Origin: a virus
Lineage: Duplodnaviria; Heunggongvirae; Uroviricota; Caudoviricetes
Direction: 5' to 3' (one strand)
IMG/VR virus record: IMGVR_UViG_2671180770_000015
DNA: 15,874 nt
Positions 4,301 to 15,140 of this stretch are shown here, piece by piece. Position 1 is the stretch's first letter; each line of letters opens with the position of its first letter. Below the pieces are notes generated by a model. That model was not told where the DNA came from, did not search any database, and saw nothing but the letters and a program-made list of their open reading frames with translations. Both the position numbers and the translations under genes were made by a program.

Positions 4301-4561
4301 TCAGAACTTATAACCGACACCCACGATGAAACCGTCAGTGCGCCAGTCACCACTGCCGGAGCCTTCATAAGCAATATCAATGGCCACGGATTCGGTCGGG
4401 TTAAACTGCACGCCAGCTCCCCACGCCAGAGACGTGTTGCTGTGGCGACCGTCATCACTTCCGGTCAGCACGTCGTGCGTTTTCCCCTTGTTGTCAGTTA
4501 CGCGGAGATAATCCCCGGAGAAAGTCGACACACGGCTGTAAGCCATACCGATATGCTCCAC
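4301..4561 (-). pseudogene. lom: Lom outer-membrane protein (Ail/Lom family), 3' fragment only (~80 C-terminal residues, no signal peptide)
   Basis: Translation ...SLAWGAGVQFNPTESVAIDIAYEGSGSGDWRTDGFIVGVGYKF matches the lambda Lom C-terminal beta-barrel strands; the N-terminal ~120 residues are absent. Confidence 0.85.
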
Positions 4562-5390: not shown

Positions 5391-5548
5391 ACCTGGTTAT
5401 CTCCCGCAACGGTATTCCCGGCAACCTGCCGGGTGGCAACCGAGACCGCTTTCTGTGCCACACGGTTTATCGCCCATGCGCTGGCCTGTGGCACCATATG
5501 GGTATCAAGGCTGTTCAGATTGCGGATGGCATTCTCAAGCCCCTTCAT
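5351..5548 (-). pseudogene. Tail completion protein (lambda gpZ-like), N-terminal ~45-residue stub running out of frame into the tape measure remnant
   Basis: MKGLENAIRNLNSLDTHMVPQASAWAINRVAQ resembles the lambda gpZ N-terminus (MAIKGLEQAVENL...AMAINRVAS); similarity is lost after about residue 44 and the ORF terminates inside the tape-measure frame. Confidence 0.6.
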
Positions 5549-6194: not shown

Positions 6195-6214
6195 AAAAAA
6201 AGCCCTTACGGGCC
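6195..6214 (-). terminator. Putative weak intrinsic terminator just downstream of the capsid gene
   Basis: Minus-strand GGCCCGTAAGGGC hairpin followed by seven T (complement of the A-run at 6195-6201). Confidence 0.4.
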
Positions 6215-8335: not shown

Positions 8336-9154
8336 TTAGGCCTTGCGCCGACGTTTGACATCATCCGGATTACGACCACCAGCACGTACCCAGTCTGATT
8401 CTGTCGCCGCTCCACCACGAATCTGGATTTTCCAGGCCTCAGCCTCCTTAACAGGGTCAATCCACGGCATCACCGGTCCGGAATACACCGCGGTATACAG
8501 TGAAGAACGGTCAAGATCGCGGGGTAGCCTGATAACACCGGATGCCACAGCCTGTTTCAGCCAGGCACGATACATCGGGCGGGTGACGGCACCAATAAAC
8601 CAGTCCTGCAGGATCAGGTAGCCATCAGTAGACTCAACCAGTTCCTGACGCTGCGCGCTGTAAGTGCCGTTATAGTTGCGTGCCGTACTGGAAAAACTCA
8701 GACGACTGCCCGCCGCCACGGCACGCAACTGACCATTACGAAAAGTTTCAAGGTTAGGATTGGGACGATCCGACTTCACCATTCCGATTTCTTCGCCGGG
8801 TTTCAGATCGTCGTAAATAATGCCTGGCTGAATGGTAAGCTCGCGTTCATTCTCCTTGCTGCCATTACCATCCGGTTCATAGCTCTGCCCGTCGCCTTTC
8901 CGGATGTACATCCCCAGAGCAGCGGCGATCCTTGCTGCAGTCAGCTCAGAATCTTCATACTCTTTCAGAGCACTGAGGCGGATCAGCACACCGGACAACA
9001 AAGACGTCCCGCGCATCTGGTGCAGACGGCGAACAAATTTAAGATGCAGCATTCGCTCTGCATCCACTTCTTTGGTTTCCATCTGCCGCCCGGATACGGG
9101 ACGGCTTTTATACACCAGATATTTTTCGGGACACCCCCAGTCATCAACAAACAC
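8336..9154 (-). pseudogene. Portal protein (lambda gpB-like), C-terminal ~270 residues only
   Basis: Translation ...YSAQRQELVESTDGYLILQDWFIGAVTRPMYRAWLKQAVASGVIRLP... resembles the lambda B C-terminal half (...YSSARASANESWRYF...EEALLRGIIRPP); the N-terminal half is missing. Confidence 0.7.
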
Positions 9155-9186: not shown

Positions 9187-10578
9187 TCAGCTGGCCGGAT
9201 CAATTCGCTGGCTCTCCCCGTCGCTGTCACCGCGCAATGACTGCGTGATGTTGTAACGATCAATAATCCAGCGTTCGCCACGGCTGCCATAGCCCGTTAC
9301 CTGAACCACAAAACGGCGATGACGTCCCGCCTGCACATCCACTGTCGCCACAAGGAAATTAACGCCATCCGGCACACTGCGGGAAGGAACTGGCTCTGCC
9401 CGCTGCTCAAGCAATTCACTTTTTCGTTGCTCCATGCTGGCGCGGGGAAGATAAGGTAATCCCCAGTCGGTATTGATAACCGTCTTGAGTGTCTCTTCAC
9501 TTCCGGTTGTCTCGTATTCCTGTTCTGCAGTAAGCAGTTTGTAAACGAGTTGCGAGAGTGTCTGATAAGCAGCTGCCGGACCCTCCATCCAGAATGACGC
9601 AATACGTGAACGCCGGGGATCACCATAACGACTGCCATCTGCATTGATGGATTCACCATCCCGTAACCAGACCCCACGTCCGTTCAGCTCGCGTTTTTGT
9701 TCAGGCAAAATCCGTCCTGAACAGGAAGGACACTGAATATAAGCCGCCTCACTTGCCAGCACAGGATCGGCAATATCACGGAAACCAGCAACCACATCGC
9801 CGCAGGGCTGAAAATACTCACCACAGTGTGGACAGGGCCAGTACCAGCGACGGCGATCGCCACGGTTATAGAGCGACAGGATCCCCGTGGTTGGTGGAGC
9901 CTCATGCGGTGAAGTCCGTCGCCATTTCACATCCTTCACATCCCTGCCGGGGGAACTCTCCACAAGCGTCATACCACTGGACATAAATGTGGTGGTACGT
10001 TTTGAGGCAAGAGAGAAGGCATCCCCCTCACCATCAATATCTTCCGGAAAACGGTCATAATCCGTCAGCGCCACGCATTTATAATCTGATGAAGACATGA
10101 TATTGACTGACGGCCAGCCGATTTTCAGGTAGTTGCCAGCAAGGAATGTTCTGTCATAAACGTTGTTGTCATTTTTGTTCGGACTCAGGCGACTGACCAC
10201 TTCCGGGCTGACGCGAAACGTTCTGGCGAGTCGTTTTTTGGAGTGTTCGCGGGCTTTTTCCTCCGTCATCTGAATGATCAGCATATCAGCAGGATCGCAA
10301 ATCACGTTGTAAATCACCCAGCCGTCAATCAGGCCGATAGTCTTGCCGGTTCGTGCCGGGCCAACAAATATCACTGCGTCGTATTCACGCGAGGCCAGGC
10401 AGTTCATCGGCTCAATAACATACGGTGCCACCAGCGGATCCCACGGGACTGAGTTCCCTGCCCCCATGGGCACCCGCATATACTGAGCAACGGCATCAGC
10501 AACCCGCATTCGTCTCGGTGCGCGAAGGATATAACCTGAATCGGTTCGTGCTGCCTTTGCGGTTTCCTGATTCAGCAT
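9187..10578 (-). pseudogene. Terminase large subunit (lambda gpA-like), truncated to 463 aa (lambda gpA is ~640 aa)
   Basis: WYWPCPHCGEYFQ matches the lambda gpA FHVACPHCGEEQY region, and the ORF ends at ...WIIDRYNIT..., equivalent to about gpA residue 480. The downstream sequence is portal-derived, not terminase. The start overlaps the terminase small subunit stop (ATGA). Confidence 0.8.
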
Positions 10579-11300: not shown

Positions 11301-11438
11301 CCGTGACGAGCATCTGATACAGCGCTTTACATAATGGCATAGGAATAATTCAGAAGGACATCACAGCATGCCCACACAAATTAGTGTGAGTGTCCTGTTT
11401 CTTCCTACGCACAGGACTGACGAGCATGAGGGGAAAAT

Positions 11439-12644: not shown

Positions 12645-12685
12645 ACAAAACCCCGTAAAAACGAGGTTTATGGATAAATTTTATT
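12645..12685. terminator. Bidirectional hairpin between convergent ydfO-like and gnsB-like genes
   Basis: AACCCCG-taaaaa-CGAGGTT hairpin at 12649-12668 with T-rich flanks on both strands. Confidence 0.4.
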
Positions 12686-12868
12686 ATTGAATACATCAGA
12701 TTAAATTAATCTTGACATCATAGCTTTCAAGACCCGTCATTTTTTCCCGTGCGGTAAACTGAATACTGGTAACTTCTTTCCCGGTCTTTTTCTTAAGTTC
12801 AATAATTTTTTTGTTATATATTCAGAAATATCTGCTTCTGCTTTTGTTTTTAAGTCTTCAATATTCAT
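12686..12868 (-). pseudogene. gnsB: GnsA/GnsB-family small protein gene, disrupted by a frameshift in a homopolymer run
   Basis: Minus-strand start MNIEDLKTKAEADISEYITKK, then after a 7-base A-run (plus-strand T-run at 12806-12812) the GnsA/B-like sequence IIELKKKTGKEVTSIQFTAREKMTGLESYDVKINLI continues in another frame. The frame is restored by a single-base insertion in this run (8 A instead of 7). Confidence 0.6.
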
Positions 12869-13038
12869 CATTTCCTCTTTTAGTCTGTTATGACTTTCCA
12901 GTTAGACAGTAAGTCGATTATATGGTGCAAACGTGTAAAAGATAAGATGAAACATCGCAATAATCAACATACGATAGTCTAAATTTTACACAAACAGACA
13001 AAGAGAATTTCCCGAATTATCAATGCAATAGCATCAAA

Positions 13039-13230
13039 TCAACTCAAGAGCCTTATTGCTGCTTCCAGAATTTCTTCTGAAGTAACATGTCGATCCGCGG
13101 CTACATAAATGACTTTATGATCTCCGGTCAGAGATGGAAACCCTGCGGCCATTACAGTAAGGTGTGTTTTTTCGCCATTTGGATATTCACGCATGATGGT
13201 GTTAACTCCAGTCATCGCTGGCACTACCAC
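13039..13230 (-). CDS. Hypothetical protein (63-aa ORF; possibly a longer protein interrupted by a homopolymer frameshift)
   Basis: ORF MVVPAMTGVNTIMREYPNGEKTHLTVMAAGFPSLTGDHKVIYVAADRHVTSEEILEAAIRLLS from a GTG start. Upstream, an ATG at 13270 (MKKIIVFF) would join this frame if the 9-base A-run at 13246-13254 (on the + strand) were 8 bases. Confidence 0.4.
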   Translation of the reverse strand: MVVPAMTGVNTIMREYPNGEKTHLTVMAAGFPSLTGDHKVIYVAADRHVTSEEILEAAIRLLS

Positions 13231-13312
13231 TGCTGGTTCAGAGTTAAAAAAAAACTATGATTTTTTTCATGATGTTACCGTAGTATGTGAGTATCCATCG
13301 AATAGACACCAA

Positions 13313-13352
13313 GCAAAAAAGCTCCCGAAGGAGCCTTCATTTTCACTTTTTT
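13313..13352. terminator. Intrinsic terminator (bidirectional hairpin) downstream of the cold-shock gene
   Basis: GCTCC-cgaa-GGAGC at 13321-13334, flanked by AAAAAA (13315-13320) and T-rich sequence; gives a U-tract on the minus strand. Confidence 0.65.
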
Positions 13353-13541
13353 AAATCCAACGACAGACGGCTGGCATTTAAGTATTGTGAAATATTATCA
13401 AATGTAATCATCATTGATTTACAAAAGATACATTTTGCCCCGAAAGGATTCATGTCAGAAACATCAAAAGATGATGTTCTATACTGGGAACCATGACAAC
13501 ACGGGCATCTAAAGTGAATATGGTTTGTAATATTGTCTACC

Positions 13542-13754
13542 TCAAAGCGCCACTACATGAACAGCGGCAGGACCTTTAGGTCCGTTCTCAATACCAAATT
13601 CAACTTCCTGATTCTCAGTTAATGTTTTGAAATCGTTGCTCTGAATTGCTGAGAAATGGACAAACACATCTTTGCTGCCATCTTTCGGCGTGATGAAACC
13701 AAAACCTTTTTCAGGGTTAAACCATTTCACTAAACCAGTCATTTTGTTAGACAT
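13542..13754 (-). CDS. cspI: Cold-shock protein, CspA family (CspI-like)
   Basis: 70-aa [41 protein letters not shown]... with the RNP1/RNP2 cold-shock domain motifs; symbol assigned by synteny with the Qin lysis cassette. Confidence 0.9.
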
Positions 13755-13920
13755 AATTATTACCTTTTGAAGAAATTAGCCCTTGGGCAGAATGGTCCGA
13801 AAAAAAATATCAGAGAGAAAAACCAACAAGGAAATCTCAAGAGGTACAAATAATAAAATTATAACAATGACTGCTTCAGATAAATTTGTAACAAACCAGA
13901 ACACCATTAACGCATGATTA
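13755..13920 (-). promoter_or_regulatory. Probable long AT-rich 5' leader and promoter region of the cold-shock gene (extent uncertain)
   Basis: About 360 bp of AT-rich non-coding sequence lies between the Rz stop (14117) and the csp start (13754); CspA-family genes typically have long structured 5' UTRs. No promoter hexamers could be placed with confidence. Confidence 0.3.

Positions 13921-14116: not shown

Positions 14117-15140
<1,024 letters not shown>

Follow-up and report, generated by a model that had tools for sequence, protein, structure and literature searches.

One-base length changes in two homopolymer runs disrupt gnsB and ynfN in a decaying Qin-like prophage of Escherichia coli

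The closest described relative of the locus studied here is the string cspI-ynfQ-ynfR-ynfN-gnsB in the Qin prophage of E. coli K-12. The same genes, in the same order, on the same strand, and with the same sequence, are present in a 15,874-nt stretch of DNA (hereafter, the window), and identity in many strains is above 99% over 861 bp. In K-12 MG1655, ynfN is frameshifted at a run of seven A's (A7), and RefSeq flags the gene as "frameshifted" (1773-2002 of the MG1655 locus). The window is affected at the same run but has nine A's (A9), and its gnsB has a run of seven T's (T7) where MG1655 has eight (T8); the deletions in the surrounding prophage also differ. ER1709, which is a derivative of K-12, carries the same double hit: it has T7 in gnsB and a length change in ynfN, and both genes are annotated as pseudogenes by PGAP. 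However, its ynfN is A7 whereas the window's is A9, and the strain backgrounds differ.

A paralogous layout is found around ymcE-gnsA, a reported type II toxin-antitoxin pair that lies by cspG-ymcF: each locus has a csp gene, a ymcF-like gene, a 76-aa ORF, and a gns gene. We considered whether YnfN might be a YmcE-like antitoxin of GnsB and rejected the idea, because there is no sequence similarity (YnfN gave no BLASTP alignment to the YmcE antitoxin and no match to PF15939) and because K-12 has a broken ynfN together with an intact gnsB. Literature searches turned up no more than passing references to ynfN and gnsB and did not find these two tracts discussed. As for the type of lesion, frameshifts at runs of nine A's or T's that can be restored by slippage have been described in mxiE of Shigella, in IS elements, and in disrupted E. 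coli ORFs (PMC1088944), and ynfN in the window likewise has U9 in its mRNA at the point of the frameshift. In cases of programmed slippage, however, the shifted arrangement is conserved in homologues, whereas most ynfN alleles have the in-frame 8-nt run, and A9 is both derived and rare.

The string of genes in the window lies on the minus strand. It is headed by an intact cold-shock protein gene, cspI (13542-13754), which is followed by an intact ynfQ (13343-13531; a gene for a ymcF-like cold-shock small protein, PF23641) and by ynfR (13275-13340), which encodes a 21-aa cold-shock-induced small protein (YnfR-SPA was induced upon cold shock; PMC6001520). The stop codon of ynfR is 4 nt upstream of the ATG of ynfN, so translational coupling of these two genes is possible. 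By a consensus scan only, gnsB is closely followed by a terminator-like hairpin and then a T tract (12648-12669, minus strand), and there is no such hairpin in the interval between ynfN and gnsB. The 861-bp stretch is found in over 2100 complete E. coli genomes, including 1342 at 99% identity or above, and across it the two run indels and one SNP are all that separates the window from strain 99COLEC. Further upstream, in the 5' leader of cspI, there is a run of eight A's (13800-13807, about 46 nt before the start codon) whose length is anywhere between 7 and 10 nt in the strains that we compared.

The gnsB pseudogene (GnsA/GnsB family, PF08178) occupies 12696-12868 on the minus strand, with coordinates transferred from the RefSeq annotation of gnsB in strain 99COLEC. 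The original prediction, made from the sequence of the window, was that this gene is split by a 1-nt frameshift in the T7 run at 12806-12812 (A7 in the mRNA), and this was borne out: intact alleles have eight T's, and adding one base to the run restores the 57-aa GnsB of RefSeq and the reference strains. The frame that begins at the ATG encodes MNIEDLKTKAEADISEYITKK (21 GnsB residues), shifts after codon 21, and continues with 22 unrelated residues and a stop, and the truncated product is called as a protein of 43 or 44 aa (ORF 12737-12868 or 12737-12871). Against the PF08178 profile, the truncated product aligns over positions 1-32 only (49.2 bits) instead of over the full 54, whereas the repaired protein aligns over 1-54 of 54 (119.6 bits). 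The gnsB DNA in the window is a member of PF08178 with a disrupted ORF, i.e., a family pseudogene. The repaired GnsB also aligns with residues 1-56 of the GnsA structure (4XO1/4XO2, E = 2.7e-20), GnsB and GnsA being 67% identical by BLASTP, and the frameshift costs 36 of the 57 residues of the fold that is known from GnsA.

The 43-aa frameshift product turns up in a large protein collection, both as the D5 variant that the window encodes (224 contigs) and as an N5 variant (at least 1000 contigs), and the truncated form even has a matching PHROG family, about 44 positions long. We also noticed that in some genomes, such as that of strain 537-20, PGAP gives the T7 gnsB as a 41-aa "GnsA/GnsB family" protein with a non-canonical start (IYNKK..., 1637-1762 of the locus), at odds with its treatment of T7 gnsB in ER1709 as "frameshifted".

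The ynfN pseudogene (13039-13270, minus strand; 76 aa when intact, phrog_3425) is broken at the A9 run (13246-13254; U9 in the mRNA), which has one more nucleotide than the intact gene (8) and two more than K-12 (7). Both this run and the T7 run are present in the sequence as originally described. The ATG of ynfN (13268-13270) begins a frame that encodes MKKIIVFF and reaches a TAA after codon 8, and the gene is split into this 8-codon stub (13244-13270) and a 63-aa ORF with a GTG start (13039-13230), both on the minus strand; no uninterrupted 76-aa ORF that starts with MKKIIVFF exists in the window. Removing one base from the run gives a 76-aa YnfN that is identical to WP_000720962.1 and that matches phrog_3425 over positions 1-76 of 76. 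YnfN had no match in Pfam, NCBIfam, or the PDB. Thus, the 63-aa ORF would indeed gain an ATG start if the run were one base shorter, as had been proposed, but the gain is 13 residues and not eight; the eight codons mentioned originally are those of the ATG-started stub upstream of the ynfN stop.

Judging from the reading frames, gnsB and ynfN are probably both functionally inactivated in the window. YnfN would lose its start codon and its first 13 residues unless translation re-initiates internally, and its C-terminal part might still be made, because in K-12, where ynfN is broken, the locus is still expressed upon cold shock. We considered the 63-aa ORF as a marker for A9 and discarded it: the contigs recovered by exact look-up carry A7, A8, or other upstream changes. 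The 63-aa ORF in those contigs is an artefact of start-codon annotation.

To count alleles in complete E. coli genomes, we placed each run in the middle of an 80-nt query, a length at which a sequence must be identical to the query to reach the band of 99% identity or above. With identical flanks, the T run of gnsB was T8 in 1427 records, T7 in 41, and T9 in 5, and the A run of ynfN was A8 in 1045 records, A7 in 417, and A9 in 2. The ancestral length of both tracts is 8. A7 accounts for about 28% of the complete genomes that have the locus, K-12 MG1655 among them, and the joint rarity of the window's two alleles, T7 and A9, is about 2.8% times 0.14%. Tabulating the haplotypes of 25 loci placed T7 on three or more backgrounds and A7 on two or more, and for each of them the table also has a counterpart that differs only in having the 8-nt run. 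Both tracts have undergone independent length changes in E. coli lineages other than this one. The two genomes with A9 are 2014C-4423 and HNSQ2209; RefSeq describes the gene in both as "ynfN, frameshifted", and their gnsB alleles differ. Among GTDB species-representative genomes, a scan for the ynfN tract found four loci; all of their runs were 7 or 8 nt long, and none was A9.

We also asked whether the window's run lengths are real. The original prediction had offered homopolymer error in the assembly and slipped-strand variation as the two explanations, and had called for a comparison of run lengths across related strains. If the breaks were errors, then the true genome would have 8/8 and the contig would miscount one or both runs. 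Both differences are indeed single-base changes in the region's longest runs, A9 is rare elsewhere (2/1479 records), the closest sister isolate lacks it, and some of the public T7 or A7 calls (e.g., in ER1709) could be long-read artefacts. On the other hand, the Logan assembly of run ERR134545 is 100% identical to the window over 10,048 bp, including T7 and A9, and its contig of about 10 kb is unbroken through both runs. Identical T7 and A9 calls in two different assemblies, with no contig break, speak against miscounting, although ERR134545 is possibly the same read set as GCA_001277695.1, the assembly that contains the window, in which case A9 comes from one data set on which two assemblers agree.

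The sister assemblies bear on this question as well. The nearest sister is L024 (GCA_012595785.1), a T7/A8 isolate that 3 SNPs and 1 indel in 14.1 kb separate from the window. As L024 was sequenced independently and has T7, this allele of gnsB is inherited and marks a sub-clade rather than being an artefact. Also, the other runs of at least 7 nt in the window (at 6195, 13261, 14336, and 14528) have the reference length, and a 15.6-kb alignment contains no further 1-nt indel in runs of that size. (The other single-base changes in this alignment are at 11326, in a T run of 2-3 nt; at 13013, in a complex site; and at 13799, in the strain-variable A run of the cspI leader.) Overall, an explanation by sequencing or assembly error is improbable, and of the two explanations first offered, it is the slipped-strand origin that fits the polymorphism on several haplotypes.

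The sister assemblies also give the order of events. Three more isolates (L022, L025, and L026), which like L024 share the window's three large deletions (described below), are 8-21 SNPs away and are T8/A8. Among the sister assemblies that we compared, no other isolate of the sub-lineage has A9 in ynfN; it was found in this isolate only, alongside three private substitutions. So, gnsB broke first and the broken allele was inherited, while ynfN broke later, in this isolate. These are two separate events, as the lineage data (T7/A8 in L024, T7/A9 in the window) show. The original prediction had named fixed pseudogenes as the result that would argue against both error and phase variation, and comparison of the assemblies fits such fixed, inherited alleles, which track lineages.

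We think it very likely that both breaks are genuine, fixed one-base slipped-strand mutations in the coding sequences of small accessory genes of a cryptic prophage. In the mechanism that we propose, replication slippage in 8-nt mononucleotide runs would have escaped mismatch repair, first converting T8 to T7 in gnsB and later A8 to A9 in ynfN, and the frameshift alleles would have persisted because the genes are presumably dispensable to the host. The loss of gnsB may even have been favoured, or else neutral, as GnsB is annotated as belonging to a toxin family. In mutation-accumulation work with E. coli, the indel rate climbs steeply with run length. The comparison of the window with its nearest sister (one indel in a single 8-nt run versus three substitutions in 14 kb) fits such a rise. 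Furthermore, just four of the runs in the window were ancestrally 8 nt or longer, so both events fell on its few most slippage-prone sites, and replication slippage is known to make A/T runs of such length hypermutable (Baranov et al., 2005, PMC1088944). As to a mismatch-repair mutator signature, the private SNPs, of which there are only three, are one transition and two transversions. What we see is ordinary, recurrent gene decay, and public annotation already flags such alleles in other strains, K-12 included.

A different reading of slipped-strand variation is that the runs are contingency tracts, which reversibly switch gnsB and ynfN at high frequency under selection. Both tracts are early in the coding sequence, both are length-polymorphic species-wide and, as at contingency loci, among close relatives, and changes have occurred in both directions, to 7 and to 9. 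Nevertheless, phase variation seems very unlikely. At 7-9 nt, the tracts are on the short side for switching efficiently in E. coli that is proficient in mismatch repair. Alleles that turn gnsB off are a small minority (about 3% of complete genomes). In the sample that we examined, the ON and OFF states are not scattered within clones and instead track lineages (A7 in K-12; T7 in the window's clade). Finally, the Logan assembly, which is a de Bruijn assembly, has no contig break or bubble at the runs. Phase variation is unsupported.

A third question is whether the frameshifts, if real, are complete, or whether the pseudogenes are leaky, with a fraction of full-length protein still being made. 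This would be compatible with fixed slipped-strand mutations as the origin of the breaks. The geometry of the sites, as computed, would allow it. In the mRNA of T7 gnsB, the zero frame reads A_AAA_AAA, and if the ribosome shifted by -1 on it, the product would be exactly the wild-type GnsB; in ynfN, the loss of one U from U9 by RNA polymerase slippage would restore the 76-aa frame. Also, runs of nine A's or T's are prone to transcriptional slippage in many bacteria, where this can restore disrupted ORFs (PMC1088944). Slippage on a 7-nt run, however, is expected to be weak, and most alleles are 8 nt long and in frame (1427 for gnsB and 1045 for ynfN), so although the slippery motifs are in the correct frame, the out-of-frame arrangement is not conserved. 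Leaky expression is thus a possibility that we consider somewhat doubtful, and because the arrangement is not conserved, any such expression would be adventitious and not programmed. A more elaborate proposal would be that the 8-nt runs are kept as graded tuning switches of the cold-shock module, so that length variants are recurrently selected and the "broken" alleles are leaky; we regard this as highly implausible.

The two ORF breaks merit annotation as frameshifted gnsB and ynfN pseudogenes and not as novel short genes. Similarly, the classic 51-aa "YnfN" of K-12, which begins at an internal Met, is what remains of a 76-aa protein disrupted at the run that is also affected here. In E. coli, both tracts are convenient natural markers of mutation by slippage, and they could be used to tell lineages apart. 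Outside of annotation hygiene, the significance is slight.

The setting of these genes is a Qin-like lambdoid prophage remnant in decay. The window is the whole of contig CYAV01000077.1 from E. coli assembly GCA_001277695.1 (100% identity), which was identified by looking up the exact product of an ORF that spans a deletion. Relative to an intact relative in strain 19SZHZ886Rt, it has three deletions of about 6.2, 4.5, and 1.5 kb, which take tail, head(-tail), and terminase/portal genes and have junctions near 4543-4549, 5391-5393, and 9189. At least four further assemblies, as well as several contigs from gut metagenomes, have this three-deletion architecture. The ends of the contig (1-100 and 15775-15874) are an identical 100 nt in inverted orientation and correspond to the end of an IS5-family (IS903-like) element, whose left copy interrupts pinQ. 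The prophage remnant thus has an IS copy on either side, and it is there that the assembly broke.

Decay has continued in this isolate. One of the three private substitutions, 8338 C->A, creates a TAA stop (8336-8338) in the portal gene, which was already truncated, so that the portal fragment is 272 aa in the window versus 313 aa in the sister assemblies; this stop is common only to the window and the Logan assembly of ERR134545, which was recovered by looking up the 272-aa product. The window thus offers a small, clean example of the stepwise decay of a cryptic prophage, in which blocks of genes were deleted, IS elements inserted, one gene gained a nonsense mutation, and two more were frameshifted at homopolymers, and in which the order of events is resolved. 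Another run in the remnant, a run of eight T's inside rzpQ (DUF2514, Rz-like; 14528-14535), has a length of 8 at every matched locus, in contrast to those of gnsB and ynfN, which may reflect purifying selection or merely a small sample.

By exact look-up, the 298-aa tape-measure fragment and the 272-aa portal fragment are specific to the lineage. We had also considered the 463-aa truncated terminase (9187-10578) as a lineage marker, but exact look-up found it in prophages with a different deletion architecture as well. In these other settings, the terminase ORF is joined directly to a tail-fibre fragment. The distribution of the 463-aa form implies either a common breakpoint or an older truncation across several Qin-like remnants.
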